Of a DNA stretch of 64,000 bases, positions 21,103 to 60,821 are shown in pieces. Numbering within the stretch: the first letter of the stretch is position 1; every line of letters starts with the position of its first letter. Below the pieces are notes generated by a model. That model was not told the DNA's origin, did not search any database, and saw only the letters and a program-made list of their open reading frames with translations. Origin of the DNA: Chiloscyllium plagiosum (Eukaryota); contig NC_057719.1 in NCBI RefSeq assembly GCF_004010195.1, forward strand, positions 43,988,847 to 44,052,846, given 5' to 3'. The translations under genes were made by a program, and so were the position numbers.

Positions 21103-21234
21103 TAAAAAAAATTGCAGATGCTGGAAATCTTAAACAAAGAAATTGCTAGAGAAATTCAGCAGATCTGGTAGCATCTATGGAGAGAAAGCAGAGTTAATGT
21201 TTCAAGTCCATTGACTCTTCATCAGAACCTCTTC
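21103..21234 (-). mobile_element. Short PLE pseudo-LTR insertion beginning with a hammerhead motif (21191-21231)
   Basis: GAGGUU CUGAUGA A GAGUC-AAUG-GACUU GAAA CAUU^ AACUC, then the ...ccagcatctgca tail. aaactatta repeated at 21089-21097 and 21235-21243. Confidence 0.75.
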
Positions 21235-21577
21235 AAACTATTAAAAGGGTCTGAGAAAGCAAAGGCTTAGATCACCTCCACTTAGTAAATGAAAATTGGG
21301 ACCCAGGTTTACAGAAGGGTTGTTCATACCCACATCTCCCAATTATATTGTCAACGTTCTTCAAGTTTAGATAATTTTTCCTTGCCTTTGCTCCCCATTC
21401 CTCCTAACTTTTTTCCATTTACAAACTCATCTTTCTTTATTCTTCCACTTATCTGTTGAATCTTTAGGCTAATTATAAACGATCTAAATATTTCAGCATG
21501 TATAGATACACTCTCACACTCCTGACTAGATGAGTGGCTTGGCTTCAGGAATGCAGAGGTGGTGAACTCAGGAAAAA

Positions 21578-21647
21578 CTGATCAAGCGATAATGAGGAAG
21601 TATCGACAAAAACCTGATCAAGCGATAATGAGGAAGTATTGACAAAA
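21578..21647. repeat. 36-bp tandem duplication
   Basis: ctgatcaagcgataatgaggaagtatYgacaaaa occurs twice. Confidence 0.9.
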
Positions 21648-21815
21648 GATTTTCTTCTTTCAGTGAAATGATATCAAGTGCGGAGTGAGAAAGTGATCTT
21701 GGAATTTTAGTTAAACTAATGTTTTAAAAAATATATCAACTGAAAAGTCAGTCCAACTGAATGCACGTATGAAACCACTGAAATACCATTCAGTTATCTA
21801 AGCTATCTTCATTAC

Positions 21816-21956
21816 CTGCTGAGAGTGATGCCTCTTTAGTTGTCTGTAAGGAGTGGAAGCAGATGAAGGAGTTGATTTTTTAAAGATGGCATAAATGAAA
21901 TCTTCAAGACGCATTAATCCATCTTGATCTAGTTTTTGAAATATGTCATCCAGAAT
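21816..21956 (-). CDS. NIN: Ninein coding exon (141 nt; ILDDIFQKLDQDGLMRLEDF...SASTPYRQLKRHHSQQ)
   Basis: Hand translation, not in the ORF track. TAG/GT boundaries. EF-hand-like LDxDG plus the ninein motif SASTPYRQLKRH. Confidence 0.95.
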
Positions 21957-22986
21957 CTATAATACAGAATCAAGTGTTCAAAATCTCAATGTAATAAAAA
22001 ACCAACAAAGGTAACAAATTCTGTAGCTGTATAAAAACATAGCTTCTTTAAAACATATATTCTATTCCTATTTTCTAACTTACTATGTTTAATCACAAAT
22101 GCAGAAGATCCTGCTTTCAGATATTATGATTTCACTTTATAGTTTAACTCAATAAAACTCTGAATTTGCTCAGAAGATCAAAATAGCCATGAATTTAGAG
22201 TCAGAGTCATTATTTCATGAGTTTATGTAATAATTTATTCTTTGCATTTCTCATGTTACATCTTTGCTGATCTGTTTATTGTCTCACTCTTACAATGAGT
22301 TTGTGAACTACTGGGGCCTCTGCATTAGGTTCTGTCAGTAAAAATTCTTAATAATGATAACCCAATGATGCATGTTCAGACTTTGTGGTGTTACGTCGAA
22401 GTAGCAAAATACAGCTTTGTCCCCACTGAGTTGCAAAACCGGGTTGCTATTTAGTTGTTCCACTAGCAGGGACAAAACACCAAAAGAAAGCTGACTGATA
22501 GGAGTTAATCCTGAAGGCCAGATAAACCACCATAATCTGGCTGAAGGAGAGCACTGGCAGATCTAAACATTAATCTCTGATGGGGAATAAATTTGTGTTG
22601 AAGAAACTTAAACTAGAAGTACTTTACAAAAACACAATGGGACTGTTAAAACAAAAGTAAGAAACCCGGGAAACTATAACTTAGACTTTGATTTGAATAA
22701 TATTCTAACTTAATTATCTTCAGTATAAAATGAGCTGTTCTATTATTTTTGCTGTGCTATTTGCAGCATTGATTATATTTTCTATAAAAATAAATACATT
22801 TTATCCATTTACATAGAAACATAACAAAAATGAATCTGCCTGTCTACTTTGGATTCCAGCATCTGCAGTTTTGTTTGTCCCGAACCATATTAGGAAGACA
22901 TACTGGGATCAACCAAAATCTTAGCCACTAGCAAGTATAGGGTCAATCCCATGGATTGTACTTTACGAAAATAAAATATTGAGAAT

Positions 22987-24600
22987 TATAGAGTTCTTAT
23001 AGTGCAGAAAGAGGCTATTTGGCCAGTCATCTGTACTGGCTCTCTAATCCTTCCAATTTACTGCCGGTTTCCTGTCTTTTCTCTGTAATTCTGCACATTG
23101 TTTCTAAATAAATAGTCGTCCAATGCCTTCTTCCATGCCTCAGATAATCTTACATCCACCACACTTCCAGGCAGTACATTCCAGATTCTAACTACTCACA
23201 GTGTGCTTTCTTTCATCTTGTCATAGAATCATAAAGATGTACAGCATGGAAACAGACCTTTCAGTCCAACTTGTCCATGCCGACCAGATATCCCAACCCA
23301 ATCTAGTTCCACCTGCCAGCAGCCAGCCCATATCCCTCCAAACCCTTCCTATTCATATACCCATCCAGATGCCTTTTAAATGTTGCAATTGTACCAGCCT
23401 CCACCACTTCCTCTGGTAGCCCATTCCACACATGCACCACCCTCTGAGTGAAAATGTTGCCCCTTAGGTCTCTTTTATATCTTTCCTCTCTCACCCTAAA
23501 CCTTTGCTTCTTTTGCAAAACACTTTAAAACTGTGCCTTCTGGTTATGTATTCATTTATGATTGGAAACAGGTTCCCTCTATCTGTTCTGTCCAGAGCCC
23601 TTAAGACCTGAAAGAATTCCATCAAGTCTCCTCTTAGCCTTCTCGTTTCCAAGGAAACCAGTCCCTATCTCTCCAATCTTTCCTCATAGTGTACCTCTCT
23701 GGAACCAACTTCTTAAATTTCTTCTGCACTCTCTCAATGCAGTCACATCCTTCCAATAATGCCATGTGCAGAAATGCAGCCTACCCATCAAATCTATCAA
23801 TGTGTCAATTTGAGGTTTTGTGCTGTTCACCTCACAGTTAATAATTTTCTCAAGTTTTGTGTCATCCACAAACTTTAAAATTGCCTCTACCAACCAAGGC
23901 CTAGATCAGTTATGTATCAGGAAAAGCATGGTCCAATACAACCTCTAGAGAACTTTACTACAAACTTTCTTTCAGCCAATGTTATTGTCTGTTTCCTATT
24001 TCAAAACCAATTCTGTATCCAAATTATACTGTTCCTGTTATTCCATGACATATAGCATTCATCACAAGTTTGTAATGTGGCATACTGAAAACCTTTAGGA
24101 AGTCCATGTACATCACAGCAAAAGCCTTCCCCAAATCAAGCCTTTCTATTGCATCTTCAAAACCTCTGGCAAGTTAAACATGAATTTACCACAACTACTT
24201 TTGACTCTTCCAAATCAAATGACAGTTTTCCAAGTGACTATTAATTATATCATAAAGATATTTTTTCTGAAAGGTTTACTCTCCATACCACAAATCATAT
24301 GTGCCCCACAACCCCAACCCCTCACCTGACTGAAGTAAAAATGACTGACTTGTAATTAATGGGCTGAAGATGACGTAAGGATTGCCTTTCATATTAGCTG
24401 ACAACCTTTTTTCATAGTTCCTCTTTGCTTCTTTTATTTGGTTTCTCACCCCATCTTCTGAATCTTTCGTACCCAATTTGGTACTCAATTGTACTTAACA
24501 GCCTGATACCTGACATAAGCACACTTTTTCTTCTTTCACTTAATTTCCAACCCCTTTATCATCCAGTGATCTCTGCATGTGCAGCTGTTTTCAAACAGGA
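22987..24600 (-). mobile_element. Old CR1 LINE fragment with a younger HER1/CR1 3' end nested at 23222-23505
   Basis: KFVDDTKL fragment. The nested piece encodes RDLRGNIFTQRVVHVWNGLPEEVVEAGTIATFKRHLD and has a (ctatgatt) tail. Confidence 0.75.
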
Positions 24601-24996
24601 ATATTTAATACCCAGACCCATCCTTTCTTGATCCAAGTTTTTGTTATTACCAATAAGGCAATATGCGCCTGTAAGTCCCCAGTCTTACTAACTATATTTT
24701 GTGCATTCACAAATATGCACACTTCATTACTTTCTCCCTTACTCCAACTCGACCTATTAACTTTCTATTCTCTAACTTGTGCCATTTCCCAGCATTTTGT
24801 GCATCTATGTTTACTGTTAAATATTCTCTTCTGGTTTGTACAATTCTGCTGAATTAGTTTAGAATATAATCTGCATTGGAATGTAAAGGAGTTCTTGAAG
24901 AAACAAAATAATCACAATGTTGAGTAGGTGCCGATTCCAGAGTAAGTCTACGTGGTATTTTGTGGAGGCAGCAGGTTGACGTGTGAACAGGGCAGG

Positions 24997-25125
24997 GTAA
25001 AAACAAGGACTGCAGATGCTGGAAACCAGATTCTAGATTAGTGGTGCTGGAAAAGCACAGCAGTTCAGGCATCATCTGAGGAGCAGTAAAATCGACGTTT
25101 CGGGCAAAAGCCCTTCATCAGGAAT
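24997..25125 (-). mobile_element. Short PLE pseudo-LTR insertion with 8-bp TSD
   Basis: Homologous to 17554-17649 plus tail. cagggcag at 24988-24995 and 25126-25133. Confidence 0.85.
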
Positions 25126-25126
25126 C
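25089..25126 (-). ncRNA. Minimal type I hammerhead ribozyme, core intact
   Basis: GAUUC CUGAUGA A GGGC-UUUU-GCCC GAAA CGUC^ GAUUU, with a palindromic ACGU helix III. Confidence 0.82.
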
Positions 25127-28100
25127 AGGGCAGCACATTTCTGACCAGCTTCTGTTTTAACCACTAGGGGGTGCCAACATTCCTACCATGAAAAAAATAT
25201 TACAAATGAAAACATTTCAAATTAAATCAACATTTGAACGTGCCCATGATGCACTGATGATGGTATTCCTTGTTTAATTATCCTTATAAGAATATCCAAC
25301 AGCTGAATCAATTTAAATTACAAGTTGTCAAGAAATTATTTGGACTTTTGTGGTGCAGTGGTAGTGTCCCAACTCCTGAACCAAAAGACCTGGATTCGGG
25401 TCCCACCTGTTCTGGAACTGTGTAACAGCATCTCTGAACAGGTTCATTCGAAAAATAGGCTAAATTTAAAAAATGAAGGAAGTTATTCAAGGCTAAGTCA
25501 TCTAAAATGTTATGTCTGTGCATCATATAGCAGTCCTAAGAAGTCTTCAAAAATAACAATTGTAAGCATTCTAGTTTCACTTTGATCTGAATAAAGCACA
25601 TCCCATACTTTGCAATGTGATTGTTTGACAATTGCATGAGCACAGGTTTGCATTATTTGCAATAACCTGGTTACCGAGTTAAAAATAATCTCATTTTTGC
25701 AACACACACCCTCTTAAGATGATTTCCATCATATTGAATCAGAAATTCATCAAAACTTATGGGATACAAATTGCATTCATTATGTGATTACCTGAAAAAC
25801 ACATCAATCTGCACAGGCACTGTTCACTACTACTGCAACAATTCTTTCAGGTGCCCTAGACAGAGGTTAGGCATTAGGCTATTTACATATGGAAATTAGC
25901 AACCTAATGTCTGTTGAAGAACTTCCCCACATTGAGAAATGAGTTGTTGATGATTTGCTATAATATTAATGTTAAGAGGTTGTGCTGAGTATCCCAAGAT
26001 ATTTCTGGCCAAAAAGATGATGCTGAAAAGGTAATAGACTTCAAAAGTAAACTAAAATTTAAATTTGACAAATGAAAGATAAAGTTTGGTGTTCCCAGGT
26101 TACTAGGCAATCACAAGGATAATTCATTGAAAGTTGTTGAAATAGTACTGCGTATGAAATGCAAACATCAACCGTTCACCATATGGCCTTTATTGTAAAC
26201 CGACATAACCAAACCAACACATTTGCAACGATGTGAATTCAGGGACGATCCAGCTAGTTATCAATGCACTCCATGACTCAATGTACAATGGCCAGAATGT
26301 TACGTCCTGCACTGGAAAGGCTGATTCTACTTTTTATGGCATCTCCAAACTTATCACCTTCTCTCTGGTTATGAAAACGGTCTTTGTATCCCTCCTGCAT
26401 CATCAAGCTCACAAAACAATCTCTGACAGTACATCCTCTAATAATTTATCTCGTAACAGCTTCTGAACTAAATCTATCTCTAAACTTAGATAGAGTCTCT
26501 GAGCTGACTCCATCTTAAAGTCAATATTATCTTAATGAACTTCCACCTTTAACTCTGGGACTTTTTTCTGTTACCTCTGATCTATCTTCTATTTACTGTC
26601 AGATCTTACCTTTCTTTATGTAACCAGGCTGATGTCACTGGAGTTTTACTCAAGCTTTTATCCAATCACATTGTGTATTTTAGCTGCTGTTCTAGACCTA
26701 TGTCAACTTATTTATGATGTTTCACTTTTTTACTTTTCTTCTTATCCATCCAAGACCAGTCACTTCTATCATCATGTCGTTTTTTTTATTTCTTCCATCT
26801 CTACCTTCCCAATTCCCTAACTCAAACTTTCATTACTCCTCATCGTTGCTGCTTTGGTTGCTGCTGTACCAGGTTTTTACGCTTCTGGAATAAGCCTGCC
26901 ACTGCCATGTGTGCCTCTCTTGGCACTTCTGTGAAGACTCATTATGACAACCAAGCCCAAATGGCCCGTATTACTCTCCTGTAAAACATAATTTCAATTT
27001 GCCATTCCCTCTGCTGACTCTGTGGACCCTGCTTGAGATCAAGTCTCATCACCTCACTATTGGCTTCCCTCCAGAATTTCCTTTGGGCTCTTGATATCGA
27101 TAAATATCACAGCTTGAAGGGAAAATTAGTTGATATTCCCTGTGTAAGTATCCTCCTGAGATCAGATTTCAATTTACCTTTTACTATGAAAAACCAATGT
27201 GGTAATGTCATGGGTCCAGTTATCCAGAAACCAAGGCAAATGTTCTGTGGACAATAATTTGAATCCTACCTCAGCATTCAATAAAATCTGAAGCTAAAAG
27301 CTAATCTATTGATGATAGCTGTACAAATCTAACTGGTTCATTAAGGTTACTTCGGGAAGAGAATTGTCATTCTCAACTCGTCTCCCTTTACGTGAATCCA
27401 AATCCATAGCAATGTGGTTGAAACTTAACTGCCTTTTGAAATGGTCTTAACAAATCACTCAGTTCCAGAGGAAGTAAGAAATAGGCAGTTGGGCTGGTAA
27501 GTTAAGGGAACTTCTTGGAAGAACTAAAAAAAACGGAGTTAAAAGTGCAAGTCTTCTTAAGCTATAGTGTTAGGTTTAGCAGCGCTTGCTTTGTTTACTT
27601 TATCTTGATATATGCAATCAAGTTTAGTTTAGTTAAAATCATGAAATCTTGTAGCAATTTTGTCAGGTAATTATTTGGTTTCCATGCTTCTTCTTTAAAT
27701 GCTAACAGTCCCTAACAGGATTTCAACAGTCTAAATGTGCAAACTTGAAGGCAGGTTGCTGGGCAGAAATAGGTTATTCCCCGTTCAGGAGAAAAGTGAC
27801 CAAATAGGAAGACCAAAAAAAATCAAAACCACCACTAACTAGCATCCCCCCCACACCCAAAAACAAATCAATTAACTGATCCCAAAAACACTCGACATTT
27901 AGTTTATTTAAATACTAGATGGCATTTTACCCATGGCTTTACAGCATTTCCTTCATCAATTTTTCAATTGCCAAAGTATATTATTTAAATTGTTCAAAGC
28001 ACACCAACATGGTGAATTAAATTTATATCATCATTTAACATTATATGAGTGACACACCTATACAATAAATAGACAAGTGCTTTGAATATTGATTGCATCC

Positions 28101-29074: not shown

Positions 29075-31440
29075 TCTTTAACTTCTGGTCCTATGTCTGT
29101 ATCACATTCCCAGCATTACAGATGTCAGTCTTCAGCCAATTTGATTCACTCCATGTGATATCAAGAAATGGCTGAAGACACTGAATATAGCAAGGGGCTA
29201 TGGGCCCTGACAACATTTTGGTAATTGTACTAAAGATGTGTGCTCCAGAATTTGCTGTGCCCCCTGGGAAACTGTTTTGTTCCATCATGAAGACTGGCAT
29301 CTAAGCATCAGTGTACAAAATTGCCTGGATACATCCTGTGCACAAAATGCAGTAGAAATCTAACCCAGTCAATTACTGCTTTATCAGTCTAAACTCTAGC
29401 AACAGCAAAGTGATGAAAGGGGTTGTTGACTGGGCTATCAATTTGTACTTGCAATGGAATAATCTGCCTACTGATGCTCAGTTTGACTCCGACTGGGCCA
29501 CTCAGTTCCTGACCTCATTATAGCCTTGGTTCAAGTATGGGACAAATGAACTGAACATCGAGGTGCCTGAGCTAAATTGGAGTCAATGGAAATCAGGGAA
29601 AACACTCCACTAATTGCATTCATACCTGCCTCAAAGGAAGATGATTGAAATTTTGGAGGCCAATCATCTTACCACCAAGATATCTTTGCAGAACTGCCTC
29701 AGGATAGTGCCCTATACCCAACCAGCTTTAGCTGCTGCTTCATCAATGGCCTTCCCTCTAACATAAAATTCAGAAGTGAGGATGTTTGCTGATGATTACA
29801 CAATGTTCAGTGCCATGTTATCTAAGATTACAAAGAGATCTTGATCACTTGGGCCAATGGGCATAGGAGTAGCAGATGGAATTTAATTCGGATAAATGCA
29901 AGCTACTGCATTTTGGCAAGATGAACAAGGGCAGGATTTATACAGTTAATGGCAAAACCCAATGCTGTTGAACAGCGAGACCTCGGGATTCAACTATATT
30001 ATTCTTTGAAAATTACCTCACAAATAGACAGGTTGGGAAAGAAAGCATTTGGCACACTTGGCTTCATTGCTCAGACCATTGAGTATAGGCCTTGGGACAT
30101 CATGTTGTTGTTGTACAGGATGTTGGTAAGGCCAATTTTGGAGTACTGCATAGAGTTCTGGTCACCCTGCTATAGGAAAGATATTATTAAATTGGACAGG
30201 GTGCAGAAAAGATTTACAAGGATGTTACTGGGACTTGTGGTTTTGACTTATAGGGAGAGGTTGGATAGGCTGGGACCTTTTTTCACTGGAGAGTAGGAGG
30301 TTGAGGGATGACCTTATTGAGGTTTATAAAATCATGGGGGCATTGATAAGGTTCATAGCAAAGGTCTTTTTCCTAGGGTGGGGAGTTCAAAACTAGAGGT
30401 CATGTTTTTAAGGTGAGAGGAGAAGGATTTAACAAGGGACCTGAGGGGCAATTTATTCACACGGAGGATGGTTTGTATGTGGAATGAACTACTAGAGAAA
30501 GTGATAAATGCAAGTACAGTTACAACATTTAAAAGACATTTAGACAGGTACATGAATAGGAAAGGTTTAGAGGGATAACTGGTTAAGTTGGACTGAAAGG
30601 TCTGTTTCTGTACTGTATGATTCTATAACAATGCATGATTCCTCAAATACCAAAGCAGTCTATGATCACATGCAGCAAAGCCTGGACAATATCCAGGATT
30701 GAGCTGGTAAGTTGCAAATAATACTTTTGCCACAAAGTGCAAAGCAGTAACCATCTCCTTCAGGAGAAAATCTAATCATCACCTCTTGACGTTCAACAAT
30801 GCTACAGATTCACAGTTGCTGAATCTCCTACTATCAACATCCTAGTGTTACAATGGACGAAGAACTACCCAAATGAAGTAGTTGCAAGAATACGTCAGAG
30901 GCTAGGAAATCTTTACCAATTAACTCACCTCCTGTCTCCCCAACACATAGCTACCATCTCAAAATCAGGAGTGTAATGGAATACTCTCCATTTGCCCAGG
31001 TGAGCACAACTTCAACAACATTCAAGAAGCTTGACTGGCACCTCATCCACCACCTTCAACATTCTCCACTGATGCACAGTGGCAACAATGTGTACCATCT
31101 ATAAGGTGCATTGAAGTAACTCAAAACTACATCAACAGCACTTCCCAAACCAACTAAAACTGCCAAATTGAAGGACAAAGGCAGCAGATACATGAGAACA
31201 CCATCACCTACAAGGTCCTCTCCAAGCCACTTGCCATCCTGACTTGGAAATATATCAGTGTTGCTTCTCTGTCACAGGGTACAATATCCGGAACTCCCTT
31301 CCTAACAGCACTGTGGGCATGCTTGTGTGCCAAGACTGCAGTGGTTCAACAAAGCAGCTCACTACCATCTTCTCTAGGAAAATTTGGGGGTGACCAATAT
31401 GTGCCAATGTAGCCAATTATGCCCACATCTTTATAAACAA
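29075..31440 (+). mobile_element. CR1/L2-group LINE interrupted by a nested HER1/CR1 3' fragment (about 29822-30627)
   Basis: Host carries KAMGPDNI, NY..ISL, PQ.S.L.P and MFADD motifs and resumes after 30630. Insert carries LVRPILEYCIEFWSPCYRKDIIKL and a CR1 tail. Confidence 0.8.
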
Positions 31441-33352: not shown

Positions 33353-36300
33353 GTACAAAGAACAAAGAAAATAACAGCACAGGAACAGGCCCTTTGCCTG
33401 TCCAAGCCTGCACCAATAGAGATCCTCTATCTAAACCTGTTGCCTCTTTTCTAAGGATCTGTAACCCTCTGCTCTCTGTCCATTCTCTCTAGATACATCC
33501 TAAATGATGCTATCCTGCCTGCCTCTACCACCTCTGCTGGTAACGCGTTCCAGCCACCCACCGCCCTCTGCATAAAGCACTTACTACGTATATCTCCCTT
33601 CAACTCTTCCCCTCTCACCTTGAACTCATGACCCCTAGTAATTGAGTCTCCCACTCTTGCTACCCACCCTGTCTATACCTCTCATGATTTTGTATGACAT
33701 CTACAGCACTTCCCTCGTCATTCAACTTTGTCACTTTCTCAAAGAATTCTATTGAGTTGGTAAGACATGACCTTTCCTGCACAAAACCATGTTGCCTATA
33801 CCTCTCATGATTTTGTAGACTTCAATCAGGTCCCCTCTCAACCTCCATCTTTCTAATAAAAATAATCTTAACCTATTCAACCGCTCTCCATAGTTAGTGC
33901 CCTCTATACCAGGCAATATCCTGGTGAACTTCCTTTGCAGCGTCTCCAAAGCATCCACATTCTTTTGGTAATGTGGCGACCAGAACTGTACGCAGTATTC
34001 CAAATGTGGCTAACTCGATACAACTGTAACAAAACCTGCTGACTCTTGTACTCAATATCCCATCTGATGAAGGAAAGCATGCCGTGTGCCTTCTTGACCA
34101 CTCTATCAACCTGCATTGTCACCTTCAGGGAACAATGGATCTGAACACTCAGATCTCTCTGAATAAATTTTCCTCAGGACTTTTCTATTTACCATGTAGT
34201 TCACTCTTGAAGTGGATCTTCCAAAATACATCATCTTGCATTTGCCCGGATTGAACTCCATCTGCCATTTCTCTGCCCAACTCTCCAATCTAACTATATT
34301 CTGCTACATCCTCTGACAGTCCCTTTCACTATTTGCTACTCCACCAATCTTAGTGTCATCTACCAACTTGCTAATCAGACCACTTATACTTTCCTCCAAA
34401 TCATTTATGTATATTATAAACAACAATGGTCCCAGCACAAATCCCTGTTGAACATGACTGGTCACAGTTGTCCATTTTGAGAAACTCAATTCCATACCTG
34501 CTGTCCAGCCAGTTCACTATCCATCTAGATAATACACTCATCAGCCTACCATGGGGAACCTTACCAAAAGAATGTGGATGCTTTGGAGACGCTGCAAAGG
34601 AAGTTCACCAGGATGTTGCCTGGTATGGAGGGCACTAACTATGGAGAGTGGTTGAGTAGATTAGGATTATTTTTATTAGAAAGATGGAGGTTGAGAGGGG
34701 ACCTGATTGAGGTCTACAAAATCATGAGAGGTATATGACATCTACAGCACTTCCCTCATCATTCAACTTTGTCACTTCCTCAAAGAATTCTATTGAGTTG
34801 GTAAGACATGACCTTTCCTGCACAAAACCATGTTGCCTATCACTGATAAGCCCATTTTCTTCCAAATGTTATTAAATCCTACCCCTCAGTATCTTCTTCA
34901 GCAGTTTCCCTACCACTGACGTCAGGCTTATCGGTCTATAATTACCTGGATTATCCCTGCTACACTTTTTAAACAAGGGGGCAACTTTAGCAATTCTTCA
35001 CTCCTCCGGGACCTCACCCGTGTGCAAAGAAATCTGTTAAGGCCCCGCCTATTTCCTCTCTCGCTTCCCTCAGTAACCTGGGATAGATCCCATTCAGACC
35101 TGGGGACTTGCCCACCTTAATGCCTTTTAGAATACCCAACACTGCCTCCCTCCTTATGCCAACTTGACCTAGAGTAATCAAACATCTATCTCTAACCTCA
35201 ACATCCATCATGTCCCTCTCCTTGATGAATACTGATGCAAAATACTCATTAAGAATCTCATCCATTTTCTCTGATTCCATGCATAACTTTCCTCCTTTGT
35301 GCTTGAGTGGGCCAAACCTTTCTCTGGTTACCCTCTTGTTCCTTATATATGAATTAAAGGCTTTGGGACTTCTTTTAACCCTGTTTGTTAAAGATATTTC
35401 ATGATCTCTTTTAGCTCTCTTCATTACTTGTTTCAGAATGGTCCTACTTTCCTGATATTCTTCCAAAGCCTCTTCTGTTATTCTTCTGTTTTCAGTTGCC
35501 TAGACCTTCCTTTTTCTTCTTAACTAGTCTCATAATTTCACCTGTCATCCTGGTTCCCTAACCTTGCTAATCGTCTATCCCTCATTTTCACAGGAACATA
35601 TCTCACCTGAACTCTAATCAGCCTCTCTTTAAAAGCCTCCCACATATTGAATGTAGACTTCCCTTCAAACAGCAGCTCCCAATCAACATTCCCCAGCTCC
35701 TGCTGAATTTTGGTATAGTTGGTCTTCCCCCAAAATTAGCACTCTTGCCTTAGGACCACTCTTGTCTTTGTCCTTGAGTTTCCTAAAACATACAGAATTG
35801 TGATCGCTATTCCCAAAGTAATCCCCAACTGCAACTTCAACCACCTGGCCAGGCTCATTCCCAACACCAGATCCAGTAGGGCCCCTCCCGAGTTGGACTG
35901 TTTACATGCTGCTCTAGAAAACCCTCCTGGATGCTCTTTACAAATTCTGCTCCATCTAGACCTCTAACACTAAGTGAATCCCATTCAATGGTTGGAAAAT
36001 TAAAATCTTCTACCACCACTACCCTGTTGCTCCTACATCTTTCTATAATCTCTCTACATATTTGTACCTCTATCTCATGCTCATTATTGGGAGGCCTGTA
36101 GTACAACCCCAAAAATGTTACCACACCCTTCCTATTTCTGAGCTCTGCTCATATTGCTTCACTGCTTGAGTCATCCACAGTGCCCTCCTTCAGCACAGCT
36201 GTGACATCCTCTGACCAGTAATGCTATTCCTCCACCCCTTTTACTTCCCTGTCTATCCCAACTGAAGCATTTATATAAAGAGACATTTAGTTGCCAATCA

Positions 36301-36975: not shown

Positions 36976-39775
36976 CACTAATTCATGCGCCCATTTATTA
37001 ATCCTCAATTATCTGTTAAACAACTGGAATTTTAAATGCTTACAGAGATTTAGCAGTTTGTACAATAAAAAAAGTACTAAACAAATGGAGGGCGGGGGGG
37101 CATTCGCTCGTGTTCTCCTGACTCTATTCCACTCATTAAAGTTTGATGGGAGATTCTGCACTATGCATTTCTTCTTTAGCCCAGATTGAAGTATCCCAGA
37201 GGAAATGTGCATTATTGTTAGGTTGGCAAAATCTTAATGGACAACAGCAATGTGACTGTCATTGCTGTCAACTGCACGATTCACAGCAATGCCCCAATAT
37301 GTACATGGGGAGGCAGGAAGATATACCTAAAACCCAGAACAAGGAATTTGTTTATATCAACAGCACGATCTGAATAATTTTTTCATCTTTCATTTTACAC
37401 CCAGCACTCACCTAGATTGGACACTGATTGGTTATAGAAGTGGGTTACTTGGCTCACCAACTTAATTCAGCATCTGCTGCCAGAAATATAATGAGCAATG
37501 AAAGGCAGATGAAAGAGGCCAGCCTGCTTTTTTACCAATGTTTAAAAGGGAGAAAGGGGTGGGGAGGGGTGAGTGTTGACTCCCATTTGGGCTTGGGTAC
37601 AAAAGTGTTTCCTCTTTTGGGGAGGGGCAAAGATGCTCTGTGCATATCAGGGTCAACCGTTCCTTTGTGCCTCCCTATATCCTACAGCCCAATCTCCTGC
37701 ATTCCCATGACTCCCTGTAGCCCCAGCATTGGCCACTACTAATTATAGCACCGCTAGGACTAGATGACTGCTGGCCAATCAGTTCTCAAGGATGAAACTT
37801 CTTTCCTTTAGAGTCTGAGCTTGTTGACGTTGCTCCTAGGGGGTTATTGTTGTGGGAAAACTATTTTTAAAGTCTGTCTTTTCTACTGGGGAGAGATTGG
37901 TCAAATATTACACCACTCCCTCATGTAAATCCATACTGTTATTTTGAGTTTCTGAGAGGCATGCAGGAATTCACAATTAATCCAAACTATACTCTTGCAT
38001 CTTAATACAATCTATTCTCCACCAAAGGGCCACTGAACTCAAAATGTTAACTCTGCTTTCCTTCCATAGATACTGCCAAATCTACTTAGTTTCTTCATCA
38101 ATTTCTGTTTTGTTTCTCACCCAAAGATGTCTGTTCTTTAATCAACAACGTGGAAACACAAGCTTGGCTGGGGTGAATGAGAAAATTTCAGCAAATGTTC
38201 ATTAAATGTGTGTCATTTGTATTCCATAATGTCCAGATTTGAGCAGCACACAGCAATCTTTACTTCAGAGTTAACCAAAAATCCATTATTACTATCGTGA
38301 ATAAAATTCACCATTTTATATGGCAAATTCCAAATGGACTTTGACTAATGAAGTCAAAGCTCACTTGTATCATCAGTTACCATTTATTACATAAAGTAAT
38401 TTGTAAAATGAAACATCTATTGAATATATAAGAATAAACCCTGACTATTTAATTACAAGATGTGGTTCTTGTCCAGACCAGTCAACAGCATCTCTCTCCA
38501 TTTGTACTGAGTTAGCTGATATCAGCAAAAGCAGACAGGGTTGCTATAAATGGGCTTCAGTACCACTGATCAGGGGACAGACAAACCAAGAGGCCTACCA
38601 ACCTCTACCATCTAGGCCTAGACCTGAAGGTCTGGAATTTTCCCTGGATTGGGGAGAATGGCAATTCATTTAGTGGACATAATGGCTGCCTTCATGCCAC
38701 TTCAGGCACTAAGTCCTAGGTGGGAAGGTTCACAGTCAATCATCCTGACCTGTTGTTGATTAAGGCCCTTAACAAGCACTTCAGAGCCTCAGCCCAAAAT
38801 TTCCTGTTAACTTTGTTCCCAGTGGCCATCTTTCTGACTGCTACATGCTTGCCGGATGGGTGAGAGGAATGCATTGATTTGTCTCAATCTGGGGCAGTTG
38901 GAATTATAGATGGTGTGCAGATAGCTGCTGCTGAAAGCCTAACCCTGCTCTTGCCTCCTATCCCTCGCTTCTTGTGACCACAACTTCACGCCAAAATTAC
39001 TTGCCTCCCTGCTGCACCTGGTCTGCAGAGAGCAGTCAAAACCTTCAATGTAGCTTCACCTTTCATAGGGATTGCTAGCCTCTGATTGTCCAGCAACCTC
39101 AGGCAGGGCAGGGCAGGTAGGAACTGACTGGCCAAGTATCTGCCAGGCTACCACTTTAGCGTTTCATTGGTACTTGATCTGGTTGGCTTTGTTAATGGTT
39201 GGAATAGGATTGTGGAGTCTCAATCTTAAAGACATTCACCCCCACCCCCCTCCCCAAACAAAGAGAAAATCTAGCTGAATACACTTAGGTATGAAAGGAT
39301 AGTCAATGCTATGGGACAGTCTGACAGCATATGTCAGGTGGGAATTTCCCCACCTCCTTCAATAATTACTCTTTCATACTGAAATTGTTGATTCCTTGGT
39401 GGATAATGGATCCAATTAGTTCTGGGTAGCAGCAGCTCAGCATCTAATTCAAGGGGACATCACAACTGAACTGAATTATGTCCTCACAACATGTCATATG
39501 CTGACCTCACCCAGTGATTAGGGGTAAGATCCCTGGCCCAGGAGTACTCAGCCTAAATGGTACCCTACTTTCATCTCAGCTAACCACAGTTAATTCAACA
39601 ACTATAAGTCAAACTCTGAAGCTCCTGGTCTGAACACCTCAGTTACTCACAAAACAAACTGACTAGACTATCAGAGAAGCTCAGTTTTTAAAAATACCAA
39701 AAGTATGCATTGCTTTAAAAAATGAACTAAACCTTAGTGTTCACAAGATATTTTAAGTCTGCAGTTCATCCCTAC

Positions 39776-40435: not shown

Positions 40436-40621
40436 TTGCTTTAGCTGAAAAGAGAAGCATAACTTACAAGAACTCACTCCATTTTTAGACATTCATGGGT
40501 ATAGCAATTTGTAGGGCATTTCCTGAAGTGCATGGGGTGGCACCCAGCGCACTCTTCCATTAGTGATTTTTGCAGAGATTTAACTGCCAAGTGTGCAAAA
40601 ATAAAATTTTACCATCAAGCA

Positions 40622-40832
40622 CACAGAGAAAATACTGGAGAAACTCATCAGGTCTGTCAGCATCTGTGGAGAGAGAAACAGAGTTAATGTTTCTTCAGTT
40701 CTGAAGAAGTCATATCAGATTCAAAACATGAACTCTGTTTCTTTCTCCACAGATGTTGTCAGACTTGCTGAGTTTCTCCAGCATTTTCTGTATTTGTTTC
40801 AGATTTCCAACATCCACAGTATTTTGCTTTTA
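40622..40832. mobile_element. Older fold-back PLE terminal-repeat element with a decayed hammerhead at its centre
   Basis: Inverted arms at about 40624-40692 and 40723-40790. Central agtt ctgaaga...aaaa catg aact. Same family as 21103-21234. Confidence 0.72.
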
Positions 40833-42580: not shown

Positions 42581-42679
42581 TTTCTATACTTCCTATACAC
42601 AGGGTACAAATAAATCCCATTCCATCTCACCCCATCCCTTATTCTCATGCCACTTCATATATTCACTAAATTAGCCGAC

Positions 42680-45600
42680 CTTCCATTATCTAATGTTAAA
42701 TGAACTGTGGTCAGGAAAGGATCCTTTATCCCTTTATGGCCCCCACCTCAATGAGATCATGTACAACACAATGTTGACTTCTTCTATTGTTGCCTATGCC
42801 TTTGTGCCCATTTCTTTGGGCAGCAGCCTTCTCCTCACTCAACAAACTCTTTCACCTATTCTCAATACTCTTCCCCCACACCTGAACTCTTCCTCTGGCC
42901 ACTTACCTGCTCTCAATTTTTTCATTGAGAACTATTAGCTTGATATCAGCTGCCTGGATTCCTCTTCTCCCCACACCCCAATGTCTATGTCTGGACTTGA
43001 TGTAGTTTATTCTTTCAGGTCCAACTCTGACTCTGTTATTAAACATGCTAATGGGAATGGTGCTGGTGTTATCGATTATACCAACCTTCATCTCACAGAG
43101 GCTAAGTGCCAACTCTCAGATGCCTCTTTCTAGCTTTCCCTAGATCATGATTTCACTACTGAAAAACCAAACCATGTTTCCGGGACTATCACTGACCACA
43201 TCTCTGCCACAGTTTCTCCACCACAGCTTCCCACTTCATGGACCCTAAGTTTGCATAGCTTGTTTTGACCTTCTTCCCAAAATTCACAGACAGGATTACC
43301 CTGGCAGACCATAATTTTAGCTATTTCTTCCAATCTTAACATTTTTTTCATCCCTTATTCAGTACCTTCCCAGCTTCATTTGTGTTTATTCTGACACCCT
43401 ACGTCCATTCAACAATTTCCAGTTTCCTAGCACTAACTGCTTTCTCTTCACTACGGATGTCTAATTCCTCAACACCTTTCTACCCCAAGACCGTTGTAAT
43501 GGGGTTCCCTTCTTCTCCCTTGAATGGAGGCAAGTGTAGACCCCACTACCACTACCCTCCTCTGTCTGGCTAAGCTTGTTCTTTCATTTTCTCCACAACA
43601 ATTTCTCCTTGAACATGTTTCAATGTCTCCATGTTAAAGGCTATGGATAACTGCATGGATCCCAGCTATGCCTCTCTTTTTGTTGGGTAAGGGGAACATT
43701 CTTAGTTTCAGTCCTACTTAGGGTCCTCTTAAACAATTCTTTCTCCAACGTATTGATTAATATATCAGTTTCGCTATCAGTTCTTGTCTGGATCTGAAAA
43801 GAATCAACTTTGTTGTTAATTTCCATCCTTTCTCACCTTCACCTGGTCCTTCTTTGACTCTTTCCTTACCTCCCTTGATTTCTCTGTTATCTTTTCTGGG
43901 TATAGGTTTTCCACTGATATTTATTACAAAGGCATCATCTCCCACAGCTACTTATTCCTCACACACTGCTTCCTGTAAGGACTTATTTCCATTCTCCTTA
44001 ATTCTTTATCATTATTGCATCTGTTCCAATGATGCAAGCTTCCACAGCAGTGGTTCTGACATGTCTTTGTTTTTTCTCAACCAAGGATATGTCCTCAGCC
44101 TTTAACTCATTTCCTGCACTTGTGCCCTTATCCTTTCCTCTGCCACCCAAGGCCAAAATAGGATTCCTCTGTCCTCACATTCTGTCCAATCTGCCTCCAC
44201 ATTCAAATGATCATCCTCTGCATTATCCATCAAATGCAGCATGTTATCATCAATAAACACATCTTCCTTTCCTTCTCCTATCAGCATCCTGTAGGGACCA
44301 TTCCCTATAACAGTATGGACCACTCCTCCCACACCCACTACATCTCGTCTCCTACTACAGCACATTCTATGCAATTGCAGAATGTTTATCACAAACGCCT
44401 TCACCGCCTCTCTCCTCAATGACCAAGGCTGCAAACACACCTTCCAGGTGAGTCACTTGTACTTTCAAATCTAGTCTACTGTATTTGCTGCTCACAATAT
44501 GGTCTCCTCTATATTGGGGAGACCAAAATAGACTGGGTTACTGCTTTTGAGAAAACCCCTACACAGTCTGTAAGAGTGTCCCTGAGTTAAAAACCTGGCC
44601 TCTCAGTTGTTTGCCACTTGATTACACTATCTTGCTCTCATGCTGACATTTCTGTCCGAGGCCTGCTGCAGTGCTCCAGAGAAGCACAATGTAAACTGGA
44701 GGAACAGAACCTCATTTTCTGTTCAGGCACTTTATAGCCTTCAGGACTCTACATTGAGTTCAACAACTTTACACCAAGAATCCTTCTCTGCATTTTGATA
44801 TTCCCCCACCTCTTAGCGCCACTCTGCAGTATCTGTATCTTGCTTTTGATAGTTTTGCTTTCAACCAGATCTCATTTTTATTCTATTATTAGAACCTTAT
44901 CTGTACCTATGCCTCACTTTCTCTACAAACATTACACTTCCTTTACCTTTTGTTCTATAGCAGCTTTGATCTGCAATCTATCCAACCTTCCATAACTTGA
45001 TTCATTCATCTCTGCTACTTATCAATGGCATATGATTCATGAGATTTTCCTGTCTCTCCCTACAGTCAAACAGTCAGAGCATGGAAACAGATCCTTCAGT
45101 CCAACTCGTCCATGCCAACCAGACATCCCCATCTGACCTTTTCCCATTTGCCAGCATTTGGCCCATATCTCTCTCAACCATTCCTATTCATATGCCCATC
45201 TAGATGCCTTTTAGATGTCATAATTGTAACTGCTTCCACCAGTTCCTCTGGCAGCTTGTTCCATACACACCAACCTCTGTGTGAAAAAGTTATACTCAAT
45301 GTTCTGACCAATAAAAAAAGCATGCCAATGCCTTCATTGCCCCCACTCTGTCTCCATGCAACTCCACTTTCAAGGAACCTGCATCTGTTTCTTTGTTTGA
45401 CAACATTCCCCGGGGGCCCTACCATTAACTGTATAAGTCCTGCCCTGGTTTCCCTTAGCAAAACACAATATCTCACATTTATCTAAATTAAACTCCATCT
45501 GCCACTCCTCAGCCCATTGGCCCACTTGATCGACGTCCAGTCTAAAAAGCAATCCTCTATCACCACCCTCTGTATCCTACCTTCAAACCAATGTTGTATG

Positions 45601-45975
45601 TAATTGGCTAGCTCCCTGGATCCCATGTGATCTAACCTTACTAACTAGTCTACCATGAAAACCTTGTTGAACACTTTGCTGAAGTCCATAAAGACAATGT
45701 TTCTAGCTCTGTCTTCATCAATTCTCTTTGCCACTGCTTCAAAAAACTCAAATCAAGTTAGTGAGACATGAATTCTCACACACAAAACCATGTTGACTAT
45801 CCCTCATCAGTCCTTTTGAAATACATATAAATCCTGTCTTTCAGAATTCCCTCCAATAACTTACTCACCAGTTCCAAAGAAGTGTCATATTGGACACGGA
45901 ACACAAACTCTGTTTTTTATTCCACAGATGCTGTCAGATCTACCAAACTTATGTCTTTATTTCAGATCTCTAGCA
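42680..45975 (+). mobile_element. Old, near-complete Penelope-like element (RT plus GIY-YIG), interrupted by a CR1 at about 45063-45868
   Basis: Colinear with the 17.5-19.7 kb element (LPKIHR.DYPGRP, GYG.CMDPSYA, DIYYK). GIY-YIG motif LVYCICCSQYGLLYIGETK at about 44470-44527. A pseudo-LTR with a decayed hammerhead resumes at 45870. Confidence 0.82.
45063..45868 (-). mobile_element. CR1/HER1 fragment with internal deletions, nested in the old PLE
   Basis: QWAEEWQMEFNLDKCE, WNKLPEELVEA and QHGFV motifs. Confidence 0.8.
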
Positions 45976-45978
45976 TTT

Positions 45979-52427: not shown

Positions 52428-52659
52428 TGTAGTGATTGTAACCAGCTCAGCCAGGTGGACCTCATATAATGAGTTCCCTGATTGTACCAGGTTAACTGCC
52501 TCAGTCAGGGAGCCCTGGCTGACAGATGTAAACAGGAATGTCAGAAGCTCTGTTCACTTTGAGCTGGCTCTGAGGAAGCTAAACTAGTGACAATTACTAT
52601 ACACATATAAATAAAGTGTGACTTGGTGATGGGATACATGCTTCTGCTGAGTTATCTCA
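52428..52659 (+). mobile_element. Probable solo LTR (Gypsy-type)
   Basis: TG...CA termini, 232 bp, AATAAA about 45 nt from the 3' end. The TSD is imperfect. Confidence 0.55.
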
Positions 52660-57244: not shown

Positions 57245-57603
57245 TAAATTGAGGTGTAAAATAATAAGGTATTTAGATAGAGTGGACAGGAAAGATTGGT
57301 GTTCCCTAGTGGAGAGATCAATTACCAGGGGCACAGATTTAAGATGATTCGTATAAAGTGTAGAGGGGATATAAGAAAAAGCCTTTTCACCAAGAGAGTG
57401 ATGAATATCTGAAATTCAGTGCTCGCTTTGGTTTTTTGAGGCAGAAACCCTAAACTTGAAAACAAACAAGTGCTGAAAGCTGCAAGGCTTTGGACTAGGG
57501 GCTGGAAAGTGGAAATAGAATGGGTGACTAATTTATTCAGCTAACACAGATATGATGGGCGGAATGATCTCTTTCCAGGCTGTAACCTTTCCATGATTCT
57601 ATG
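57245..57603 (+). mobile_element. CR1 3' end fragment
   Basis: accaggggcacagatttaag, ttttcaccaagagagtg and a (ctatgatt) tail. Confidence 0.7.
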
Positions 57604-57756
57604 GCTGTAATAATCAAAACTTCAGTCTGAAACTCTGTACAAAATACTGTTGTGCGGGTCATTTTAGCTTACAATATTCTATTGTGTGACCTTATGGAGA
57701 TGTAAGAGGATTTAAGACTGAATTAAAAATTCCTCCAATCTCAATGATAGAATTAT

Positions 57757-58085
57757 TTGGTTGCCACAGTATTGAACAATAAGATATCAGAACTGGAGAA
57801 ACAATGCTACAAGTTATATTGCAACCTAGACTTCACTGAAAAACAGAAAAGACAAAGTTGTGAAGTTTTAGAGGCCTTGAACAAACATTTTGAGCCTGCA
57901 AATAATGTCATCTATGAATGCTACATCTTCAATATGACAGCTCAGGAACAGGAGGAGAGTATGTGGCTCTACTGTGACATCTAGATGAGTCTTGCAAGAT
58001 TGGGCAACAGAAGGATAATCTAATCAGAGACATGGTTGTCATAGGAACAAGGAATCCCACAATGAGAGCATTTCTGATGAAAGAA
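57757..58085 (+). mobile_element. Gypsy-type LTR retrotransposon gag relic
   Basis: VATVL...LEALNKHFEPANNVIYECYIFN..QEQEES, then SCKIG...NLIRDMVVIG, typical of fish/shark Gypsy gag. Confidence 0.75.
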
Positions 58086-58599
58086 GGGAAGGTTAGGGCC
58101 AGATATTCATCCTCAAAGTGGGATTTGGGAAAATTACCAAACCTGCACACCTATCTTGGCTAATACTGATTCTGGAGGGGTGATTTTCATTTACACACCT
58201 GGGGAAATGGCTGTGGAAGTGACCTGTTTAAAAGGCCTGCTTTGGGCTGGGGGACTTTGTCTTATCTGTAAGAAGAAAAGCCCTACAGTCTTCATCCCCA
58301 CAATACACACTTCCAATGCAGCATAGATTATACACCCCAAACACCCTACCATGTTTTATCATACAATCCACTGCCAAAGTTTTCCCCTCCTCCCAGCCAG
58401 TGGCCAATCATGCTCCTATGCCAAAACATGACATTTTCATTTACAATGAATGAATTCAATCATGACAGTATTATGTGTTAAAAAATCTTTGATAAAGAGG
58501 TTAATTGTGAACAAACATTGTGAAACTGATAGCAGGTATCAGACAACCAAAGCTTTGAATCAATGGATGGCTCAGATGTTTCAACATTCAGTGAACAAT

Positions 58600-59720
58600 A
58601 ATAAGATTTGACTGAGAGCCAAAACAAATATTAGAGGGCTGAAACATCTGAGCCCCTGTTTAATTGACAGCTCTTACTGTCTGATATCTGTAGCCTTGTA
58701 CCTGCATTTTGCTGTTCATTGATCTTTTAATCTCAAGTTTGTTTCTTCAGGTCCCAGTAATTTCATTGACGATGACTGAAATTTCATTTTTTTAATGTTA
58801 TTTGAACACTAGTCTGATGACACTGAGACATTTATTCTGGCATCCAGTTTAAACACCATGCTCTTCCCATTCACTTCCTGTTTAACAATACAGTAACTAA
58901 TCCCAATACTGAGGGGATTTCTCATGAAATAGTTTTATTCCTGTTATGTGTTGTTTCAACTTAAATCTGTTCTAGCTTCATAGGCTTTGTTTGTTCACTG
59001 TATTCTGTTTTGGAATTCTGTAGACTTATCTAAAATATCTCAAATTCCTATCATTGTGGCATTGTGCTACCCCTCCTGGTCAATTGTCCAATTTGCATGG
59101 TTTATTCCCTTCACAAAGATGAAGGTTGTTGTGCATTTCCTGGGCTTGGTGGGCTATGTTTTCTATCCACTTTTTGTCTTGCAGCCCATGTACTGAATTG
59201 GCTCACTTGCTTTCTTCCGTGACCCTTCAGTTTCTCCTTAGACAAACACCTGATTCAGCTTCCAGTTCTGCCTACTCATCTGTACTGAAATTTCCTGCTT
59301 CAAATCCTCCCTAGCTTGTCAAAGGTATGACAATGCCTCATCGGAAACTCCAGCCATGATTCAATCATGAATTAGTTCTGCCTTCAGCACCTTGGAAATG
59401 CAGTTTTCTGTTGACCTGTAGGTCATTTGTGAATGAATCCATGCTTTTCTCAGCCCTTCATTTTTTCCAATTAAATTATTAAATTTTTCCACATGTTGAT
59501 GTATGCATTAAATGCCTTCAGTATTTCTTCATACAATATATTAAATGCATTAACATCCTATCTTGCAACTACATTGCTATAATGGCCCCTGCTGCATACA
59601 ATAATGTTTTGACCTGGTCTATTTGCCCTTCATTTGTCTAAGCATGAAGCTATTCTGCATCTTGTAAATCTTTTCTTCCAAATCTCCCATTCCTGAATTT
59701 GGTGCAGTGTGCCTGAAATG
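58600..59720 (-). mobile_element. Gypsy gag-protease relic
   Basis: Hand translation across frameshifts: QVKTLLYAAG, SMDSFTNDL, ENC...LKAELIHD.IMAGVSDEALS, a degenerate zinc knuckle, and a protease-like VNGKSMVFKLDARINVSV (FKLDTGA motif) at about 58812-58880. Confidence 0.72.
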
Positions 59721-59721
59721 G

Positions 59722-59918
59722 CACAGGGATTAGCCAGACAGGTTCAATAGAGGCATTTAAAAAAGGACTGGAATGGATTTTTGGATAGTTCTGGTGTGCA
59801 GGGTTCTGGGAAAAGCAGGAGATTGGCACTAGATAAAAGAGCCAGAGTAGATAATAGAGCCAGTGCAGGCATGATTGGCCAAATAGCCTTCTTTTGCACC
59901 GTAATAATTGTGTGATTC
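59722..59918 (+). mobile_element. CR1-type 3' tail fragment
   Basis: gaggcatttaaaa...ggcatgattggccaaatagccttctt...gtaataattgtgtgatt. Confidence 0.6.
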
Positions 59919-60427
59919 ACTGAATTGAGCTCTGGAGCTGCTCCTTCAACTACAGTGGAGCTTGTCCAGTTGTCCGCTAATTCAGTTGATTCTTACTGCT
60001 GAATGGTTTTTGGCTCCATTTTGCAGTCTACTGCTGTCTGGTGATGAGCGCCTGGTGAGACCTAAAATTTTTTTTTCTCCATCTTGACGACATATTTCAC
60101 TTCAATAGTTACATTTGACGCCACTGCTTTTTGCTGCCTTTCCTGTTTCCACCATTTTCGATCATGTGTGTATGGTCCAAATTACTTTAATCTTCCAAAT
60201 TCTGCTTTTTGAGTCCAAGGTACTTTCCTTTAAGCTGTTCCGTTACAACTTGGTATATACACACATTCTCTTCGATCGCTCTACACAATCATCTGAGACA
60301 GACATAATCAATGCATCATTCTACATTATCACCTTTATACATTCTGCTGGTGTCTCGTTACTCTAAATCAGTAGCTTTATTAAAGCTGAGAGTTATTGAG
60401 CCAGTCAGAGTGTAAAGATTCAACACA

Positions 60428-60642
60428 GGTAGAAAGTGAGGACTGCAGATGCTGGAGATCAGAGCTGAAAAATGTGTTGCTGGAAATGCGCAGCAGGTCA
60501 GGCAGCATCCAAGGAGCAGGAGAAGCGACGTTTCGGGCATAAGCCCGATTCCTGAAGAAGGGCTTGTGCCTGAAACGTCGAATCTCCTGCTCCTTGGATG
60601 CTGCCTAACCTGCTGCGCTTTTCCAGCAACACATTTTTCAGC
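60428..60642. mobile_element. Fold-back palindromic PLE terminal-repeat element with 14-bp TSD and a central hammerhead
   Basis: Inverted arms at 60464-60546 and 60560-60642. TSD aaagattcaaSaca at 60414-60427 and 60643-60656. Confidence 0.87.
60547..60584 (+). ncRNA. Minimal type I hammerhead ribozyme, core intact
   Basis: GAUUC CUGAAGA A GGGC-UUGU-GCCU GAAA CGUC^ GAAUC, with a perfect 5-bp helix I. Confidence 0.82.
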
Positions 60643-60734
60643 AAAGATTCAAGACACTCAATAAAAGATAACCTACTTGGCAATGTGTAACCTGTGTGTA
60701 GCAGTTGTTACCACAGTTAAAATGACTGAATAGA

Positions 60735-60821
60735 CAACCACCTGTTGAAGGAGCAGCACTCCGAAAGCTAGTGCTTTCCAATAATCCCGTTGGACTATAA
60801 CCTGGCATTGTGTGATTTTTA
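60735..60821 (+). mobile_element. 87-bp hammerhead-headed mini-insertion with 10-bp TSD (third family)
   Basis: CAC CUGUUGA A GGAG-CAGCA-CUCC GAAA GCUA^ GUG at 60739-60773. actgaataga at 60725-60734 and 60822-60831. Confidence 0.75.

Follow-up and report, generated by a model that had tools for sequence, protein, structure and literature searches.

The question raised by this locus is why short pieces of a retroelement should begin repeatedly at the edge of a ribozyme. In a stretch of 64,000 nucleotides (nt) from the shark Chiloscyllium plagiosum (the window, whose positions are used for all coordinates), three inserts named E1, E2 and E3 start just before a hammerhead motif, run across its predicted cleavage site and have target-site duplications (TSDs) on either side. 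Judged by their sequence, the three are 3' end modules of 87-137 nt (solo pseudo-long terminal repeats, pseudo-LTRs or pLTRs) of Penelope-like elements (PLEs). The 5' ends of the copies present in the window cluster at the ribozyme edge, as a peak and not as a rule. Confidence in the explanation favoured here is evenly balanced: the inserts would be run-off copies, extending from an internal priming site to the 5' end of an RNA that begins just before the ribozyme.

The three inserts and their parent element

Each insert lies between exact repeats (Table 1) of 9 base pairs (bp) for E1, 8 bp for E2 and 10 bp for E3, the lengths given in a preliminary description of this DNA. In 1500 random placements of equal geometry per insert, with 3-10 nt of slack at the boundaries, a repeat at least as long was met 0-4 times for E1, 3-17 times for E2 and 0-5 times for E3; the flanking repeats exceed chance, which amounts to at most about 1%. 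No empty allele was found among 24 loose-end rows (of 12,984) and 15 joints (of 4,709) from sequencing runs over the region 17383-25392, outside which E3 lies; the TSD reading rests on these statistics and on published precedent. In one related species E1 is occupied, with both junctions bridged; junction pieces of E2 are seen there as well, but with less than 31 letters inside the insert.

The boundaries first drawn were right for E3, 5 nt off at the start of E1 and 1 nt off at that of E2. Helix I is preceded by 5, 0 and 4 nt of insert in E1, E2 and E3, respectively, in keeping with the 0-5 nt proposed at the time, and the crossing of the predicted cleavage site is seen in all three. The inserts extend 98, 98 and 51 nt beyond this site, so that the earlier figure of about 50-95 nt holds for E3 and is slightly short for E1 and E2. 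The start of E2 overlaps its TSD, 3 of 4 bases matching the parent element described below (junction microhomology). E1 opens with 6 nt (21234-21229) that find no counterpart in family B, to which this insert belongs; homology begins at C3-3, start offsets being counted here from C3 of the hammerhead core. These leading bases (21229-21234) are a copy of positions +5 to +10 of E1's own ribozyme core and were perhaps acquired by a short template jump.

The motif in each insert consists of CUGANGA, one unpaired base, a stem II of 4-5 bp, GAAA, a palindromic helix III remnant and a helix I of 3-4 bp. Stem sequences vary between families while pairing stays. The features of a minimal type I hammerhead are complete in E2 and in the copy at 60552. 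E1 has lost the 15.2-16.2 pair and E3 carries a T at the conserved A6, for which reason these two ribozymes are probably dead now. An Rfam scan of the window gave no hammerhead model, so the assignment rests on core boxes and stems. The scan returned 10 weak matches (E up to 1), to microRNAs (miRNAs) and one small Cajal body-specific RNA (scaRNA); they were rejected, the miRNA models lying on fold-backs as hairpin matches.

E2 matches the 3' end of a long copy in the window, the family A parent, at E 6e-16 and differs from it in its 3' part. E1 matches the same end at E 1e-3, as a more distant relative of the module. The families of E1 and E2 are related (E 3e-6 between the two inserts), and these are therefore not fully independent cases. 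E3 is the only copy of family C in the window and has neither parent nor relative there; it is assigned as a putative PLE end-piece by its ribozyme type and layout. Tailed and tail-less ends both occur in families A and B.

The 3' end of the parent is approximate, an assembly gap of 370 N occupies 18027-18396 and no TSD was found around the element. Its match to the Pfam model RVT_1 (E 4e-6) lies below the curated cut-off. A DKG motif, expected of a telomerase-like RT, is present in the parent and in 44 of 44 relatives of at least 850 amino acids, and the top matches of its protein, 87% and 79% identical, come from Chiloscyllium punctatum. The relatives carry RVT_1 and GIY-YIG. In the parent, the catalytic part of GIY-YIG falls inside the N gap and 18026-17871 aligns with the C-terminus of the relatives; one relative aligning there passes Pfam GIY-YIG, while the parent fragment itself matches no family. 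A Protein Data Bank (PDB) sequence search with the parent reverse transcriptase (RT) gave 0 matches. The linker pattern CX2-5CxxC is found in 16 of the 44 long relatives, and the parent looks Neptune-like and not Poseidon-like. Its hammerhead, with core boxes and stem II present, is situated in the pseudo-LTR downstream of the open reading frame (ORF). No 5' pseudo-LTR was found upstream of the parent, which is truncated at about 19730; the missing module means that this copy is incomplete, as is common among truncated copies, and nothing more.

A second, heavily decayed Penelope-like element occupies 42629-44780 on the forward strand, with remnants of RT and endonuclease that share about 30-45% identity with the parent and the parent's relatives; neither a ribozyme nor a 3' module was found behind it. 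A sequence pattern taken downstream of the ribozyme was met in 3 metagenome stretches, all unrelated to the window, and in 0 viral stretches, and two further patterns gave 0 matches in viral contigs and genome contigs.

Distribution of the 5' ends

The window contains five fold-back inserts, each with a tailed and a tail-less arm and three of them with TSDs of 12-14 bp. Together with the single copies, 18 arms were catalogued by means of search profiles derived from sequence downstream of the cut site, which limits selection for ribozyme-bearing copies; one of the three family A profile seeds reached a few nt across this site. Start offsets were placed visually; local alignment, applied to 14 arms as a check, disagreed for two (61280, +5 used and -2 aligned; 38025, +7 used and +20 aligned).

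Seven of the 18 arms start between -9 and +1, six between +2 and +29, two further downstream and three upstream, the last at -21 and -290 (both of one family, D) and at about -2085 (the parent). Per base, copying stops at a rate of 0.09 at the edge, compared with 0.003 downstream and 0.001 upstream. Once the 2-kb copy and the three chosen inserts are taken out, 4 of 14 arms start at -9 to +1 against 0.55 expected (p about 0.002), and with stricter detection and the -290 arm also dropped p is 0.004; these values are generous, because the edge window was chosen after looking and the arms of one fold-back are not independent. Set against ribozyme coordinates, the breakpoints peak at the edge. The repeated landing at the ribozyme that had been described for different families stands as a peak, with family D starting elsewhere. 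None of the 18 arms has its start at the cut site (about 1 would be expected, so that this is not significant alone). The profile search added only one confident ribozyme-less stub.

Tailed arms (E2 and the 40701 arm) and tail-less arms (60548 and 11327) start alike while their 3' ends differ by about 35-40 nt. The stop therefore follows the ribozyme and not the copied length, and a fixed-length limit set by processivity is rejected.

Four weak profile hits (63329-63364, 29105-29135, 33884-33968 and 34564-34648; E 0.4-1.6, with decoys to E 0.76) were excluded from the 18; were they real stubs, the downstream class would rise from 2 to 6. Also excluded were the element 42629-44780, for which no 3' module was found, and the family 58528-58698/8076-8136. 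The latter, a small fold-back family, has a GAAAC-like box but lacks a clear CUGANGA core and may represent a fifth family of ribozymes in decay. Family D, the fourth hammerhead family, is a counter-example whose arms do not start at the ribozyme edge. One of them extends some 290 nt into a disrupted endonuclease-like frame, which has no match from the family A protein relatives and which looks to be of Poseidon type from its motif.

Four public runs were aligned to 17383-25392 at 80% likeness, three of DNA (as contigs) and one of raw RNA (X21, a polyA single-cell run of which about 2 in 100 was read). The ribozyme-tail module of the parent is 5.7-9.7 times as deep as the next 267 nt upstream in the three DNA runs and 11-13 times in the RNA reads; the size of this step is an upper estimate because of the 267-nt bins, contig depth that is no copy number, collapse and subfamily divergence, and loose ends and joints are those of the subsets given above. 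Depth decays slowly further upstream, and the direction of the step is identical in the four runs. At 25125, the 5' edge of E2, 984, 843 and 948 contigs continue at an agreement of 0.30-0.31, equal to that of simulated unrelated flanks, with controls of shared continuation at 0.68-0.91. The 241 RNA reads past the same position agree at 0.39 and contigs at the E1 edge (1023 and 987) at 0.40, about 20% shared continuation in either case.

A joint from 17648 to 25041, in direct orientation, connects a ribozyme start with a tail-less end in 1, 1 and 2 contigs (depth 310, 148 and 33). It is the only direct joint of this kind among 15 of 4,709, the letters between are not known, and it possibly reflects a small family of tandem mini-units. 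Joint 17617-25125 (opposite strands; 3, 5 and 9 contigs) falls on the first base past the cut site and is not taken as evidence of a cleaved template; similar joints occur at 17600, 17612 and 17614, and its position may be displaced by an overlap of 2 nt with the parent. The X21 reads lie in both orientations. In bins 18451-18984, RNA reads over the RT are 3:1 in opposite mate orientation to the ribozyme module, and may be antisense or internally primed transcripts.

Table 1. Coordinates of the inserts, their predicted ribozymes and related copies in the window
Feature	Position	Strand	Description
Insert E1	21098..21234	-	Family B end module, 137 nt: 6 leading nt, minimal hammerhead, body, tail
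E1 TSD copies	21089..21097 (left), 21235..21243 (right)		9 bp, exact, AAACTATTA
Insert E2	24996..25125	-	Family A end module, 130 nt: starts at C3-4, intact core, body, tail
E2 TSD copies	24988..24995 (left), 25126..25133 (right)		8 bp, exact, CAGGGCAG
Insert E3	60735..60821	+	Putative family C end module, starts at C3-7
E3 TSD copies	60725..60734 (left), 60822..60831 (right)		10 bp, exact, ACTGAATAGA
E1 ribozyme	C3 21225; predicted scissile bond 21196/21195	-	Core boxes and stems
E2 ribozyme	C3 25121; predicted scissile bond 25094/25093	-	Core boxes and stems
E3 ribozyme	C3 60742; predicted scissile bond 60770/60771	+	Core boxes and stems
Initiator-like TCATTC	17646..17651	-	Directly before family A core; A is C3-4, the start of E2 and of the 60548 arm
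Initiator-like TCAGTT	40695..40700	+	Directly before family B core
Family A parent	17556..19730	-	2.2-kb 5'-truncated Penelope-like element: RT, end of GIY-YIG-type domain, hammerhead (C3 17645), tail-less 3' end
Family A fold-back	60428..60642		Tailed arm from +8, tail-less arm from -4; 14-bp TSD, one mismatch
Family A fold-back	15073..15255		Pivot in stem II (+8 to +16); 14-bp TSD, one mismatch
Family B fold-back	40621..40832		Tailed arm from about -6, tail-less from about +22; no TSD found
Family B fold-back, decayed	11240..11375		One arm from about 0, other tail only; ends approximate
Family B copy, decayed	61275..61410	+	Start between -2 and +5; no TSD found
Family B copy, decayed	45869..45978	+	Start about -4/-5; no TSD found
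Family B copy, decayed, tail-less	38025..38116	+	Start inside ribozyme, +7 by eye, +20 by local alignment
Tail-only stub	22841..22874	+	Without ribozyme; 5' end far downstream of ribozyme position
Family D fold-back	7095..7595		Arm starts at -21 and about -290 relative to hammerhead (C3 7482); exact 12-bp TSD

Origin of the shared 5' end

The template was continuous across the scissile bond, whose two sides are contiguous in the inserts. This continuity and the absence of arms starting at the cut site argue that the RNA was uncut when copied. An uncleaved template, already put forward as one possibility in the preliminary description, agrees with what has been published in vitro for the anole (Anolis carolinensis) Poseidon element PAc (PMC11167929). 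The best monomer fold differs from the hammerhead fold in 6 of 7 copies folded, that of E2 pairing the core with the cut-site strand. Since the monomer prefers another fold in most of these copies and single minimal hammerheads showed no detectable cleavage (PMC4209133), uncut linear RNA suffices and religation is unneeded.

Endonuclease nicking, internal priming at two sites, an uncleaved RNA template, weak cleavage by single hammerheads and a pLTR promoter are described in accounts of related elements. In the run-off reading, the enzyme of the element would prime at the internal tail site and copy uncut linear RNA, and copying would likely run off an RNA 5' end situated 3-7 bases ahead of the hammerhead core. 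A tandem unit's transcript would contain the module twice, once close to the 5' end and once at the 3' end, its promoter lying in the upstream pseudo-LTR and the priming site about 90-130 nt from the transcript start. Priming at the 5'-proximal module may then yield a short run-off cDNA, like retroviral strong-stop DNA, that could integrate alone or as one arm of a fold-back. Ends inside stem II would likely come from two fold-back cDNAs annealing through this self-complementary stem.

In families A and B, transcription likely begins at an initiator that overlaps helix I, and the RNA 5' end would be this start. The initiator consensus is TCAKTY. TCATTC in family A and TCAGTT in family B match it with the +1 A at C3-4, the chance of a match being 0.002 a position. 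A bolder version, tentative and rather doubtful, has an RNA polymerase II initiator built into the 5' strand of helix I. The transcript would start on the ribozyme itself and tail priming would give a strong-stop-like cDNA, so that a 90-135-bp unit with promoter, ribozyme and priming site might behave as a self-sufficient mini-retroelement and offer a route for regenerating pseudo-LTRs. The possibility that the 5' end derives from a splice acceptor was weighed, a pyrimidine run and an AG standing ahead of helix I in family B, and was discounted: family A lacks an AG at this place, and the copies bring no upstream exon with them.

Several observations weigh against run-off from such a start. 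The initiator-like motif is a post hoc observation, made in two families that are related to each other, and is absent before E3 and family D. In Drosophila virilis Penelope, the transcription start lies about 120 nt upstream of the ribozyme and not at its edge (PMC2377424, PMC4209133). Six of the 18 arms start inside the ribozyme and 3 upstream of it, and no 5' pseudo-LTR was found before either long element in the window. The depth step is possibly inflated by divergence of upstream subfamilies, and continuing copies may collapse or align to the parent instead of E2. No pile-up of RNA read starts or ends is found in X21, a library that shows starts poorly. The commonest first loose base at 25125, on the element strand, is C in the three DNA runs and T in the RNA run, and not a cap-derived G; a G precedes the start A in E2 and in the 60548 arm.

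It is possible, if doubtful, that the template is longer and that the stop is imposed on it by a bound protein, by a partner RNA (double hammerhead) or by small hairpins. The TCA before the core pairs with TGA in the core, and the enzyme would release or anneal to the target near the ribozyme. Such a stall would accommodate the 13 of 18 arms that start within -9 to +29 and the fold-back pivots in stem II; the anole ribozyme needs a bound protein for folding and cutting (PMC11167929), a hairpin in the best fold of the parent spans the ribozyme edge, and there is the junction microhomology of E2. Structure should, however, halt the enzyme at the 3' sides of the stems, at about +20 and +32, where 1 and 0 arms start. 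An enzyme moving 3' to 5' would meet these strands first and melt the fold before its 5' edge, so that a stop just past the folded ribozyme, as first suggested, fits poorly. Ribozyme regions fold little better than shuffled sequences (z 0.74, -1.93, -2.66 and -0.33). The in vitro product of PAc shortens with 5' truncation of the template, whose 5' end thus sets its length, and ribozyme mutants are without effect (PMC11167929).

Self-amplifying minis, similar to short interspersed nuclear elements (SINEs), are a rather unlikely source of the shared start, which would be inherited from a few masters with a fixed 5' end copied by the parent protein. Their very high abundance (18 arms in 64 kb) and the 3' differences between E2 and the window parent would suit such a class. 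In a rotifer, nothing more than pLTR sequences was needed for mobilisation in trans (PMC3846280), and dispersed pLTR-related monomers occur in frogs (bioRxiv 10.64898/2026.07.22.740005). Starts and fold-back pivots, on the other hand, vary between copies (-7 to +22), and the arms of 60428-60642 and 15073-15255 are as near to the long parent as to E2. Minis would still require a defined RNA 5' end and overlap in this with the run-off reading. The separate non-autonomous class proposed earlier as an alternative is not shown, family A inserts matching the 3' end of a parent of autonomous type within the window.

Trimming, in which the element's own endonuclease would cut new DNA just before the ribozyme, is quite improbable. 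The endonuclease of the anole element has a preference for 5'-ATT-3' and cleaves the element's own ORF-pLTR junction (PMC11167929), family A inserts begin with ATT, and tails have been ascribed to endonuclease-mediated resolution (PMC8557442), but families B (GTT/AGTT) and C (CAAC) begin otherwise.

A religated, circular template of the retrozyme kind, also proposed in the preliminary description, is very improbable. It would explain the crossing of the cut site, which uncleaved linear RNA already does (PMC11167929), and circular intermediates have been proposed for PLEs (PMC4209133) and shown for tandem retrozymes, which carry canonical hammerheads (PMC7229834). On an endless circle nothing would make the enzyme stop at -4; a circle predicts multimers and permuted units, whereas none of the 20 tandem-repeat rows of the window is a ribozyme-unit array and the direct joint 17648-25041, the one type among the 15 joints that would fit, is seen only in 1, 1 and 2 contigs. 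The parent sequence upstream of the ribozyme is endonuclease-side and not the tail of a unit. Least probable of all is an artefact of noticing ribozyme-bearing copies among ordinary random truncations. In its favour, stubs that are short and old easily escape detection, the choice of the edge window came after looking and fold-back arms are not independent. Against it, the downstream-of-cut profiles yielded a single confident ribozyme-less stub, the edge excess keeps p 0.002-0.004 when the chosen three are left out and detection is made stricter, and four runs show the depth step and unrelated loose ends.

Other features of the window are a young repeat pair in a LINE-like region (33693-33974 and 34558-34857), inverted and direct and 96-98% alike, and long coiled-coil ORFs on the reverse strand (1308-3113 and 4909-5490) that have no Pfam match and that look like ninein exons.

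Relation to known elements

The minimal hammerheads of truncated metazoan PLEs (PMC4209133) resemble those of the shark in being type I, in the shortness of helix I, in one base left unpaired ahead of stem II and in a palindromic remnant of helix III. They are mostly single genomic copies, ascribed to truncated PLEs, and the single motif is without detected cleavage. That account differs in that its text maps no insert boundaries and describes no 5' pile-up at helix I, and sharks are not among the genomes it names.

PAc (PMC11167929) shares with the shark elements a pair of internal priming sites, from which 3' ends with and without the tail arise, and AT-rich targets; both target strands are cut and extended, and uncleaved RNA is the main template. 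It differs in that the text reports no natural 5' boundary at the ribozyme, a point on which its Fig. S2 may bear, and in that the parent here looks Neptune-like. Units of endonuclease-bearing PLEs (PMC3846280, PMC8557442) are alike in their TSDs of 8-10 bp, solo pLTRs, head-to-head copies, optional tail of 30-40 bp and heavy 5' truncation. Truncation is variable in those elements, while most copies in the window stop in a ribozyme zone of roughly 10-40 nt and single inserts measure 87-137 nt.

Animal non-LTR retrozymes (PMC7229834, bioRxiv 10.64898/2026.07.22.740005) are similarly non-coding and pLTR-related, with a type I hammerhead, dispersed monomers and TSDs longer than 4 bp. They differ in forming tandem units (150-450 bp, with canonical hammerheads, PMC7229834) that give circular RNA, whereas the shark inserts are single or fold-back and carry minimal hammerheads; the head-to-tail tandem hammerhead units by which retrozymes are recognised are absent from the 20 tandem-repeat rows. 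D. virilis Penelope (PMC2377424) offers a parallel in its TATA-less internal promoter, with an initiator in the pseudo-LTR, that drives the downstream copy. Its start lies 46 nt before a 75-nt intron abutting helix I, that is about 120 nt from the ribozyme, or 46 nt once spliced (PMC2377424, PMC4209133); the proposed shark start would overlap helix I.

In the literature covered (titles and the beginnings of abstracts, few subscription papers, supplements aside), no report was found of PLE 5' ends clustering at the hammerhead. The elements look to be of a known and ordinary kind, and only their sharp 5' starting point appears unreported. Both the rebuilding of pseudo-LTRs and the role of the ribozyme in PLEs are stated as open in the published accounts (PMC2377424, PMC8557442). 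If a single base next to the ribozyme does mark the end of most inserts, an intermediate of the element's cycle would be recorded in very many genomic copies, and their shared end would argue against ribozyme cleavage or circles in making the template.

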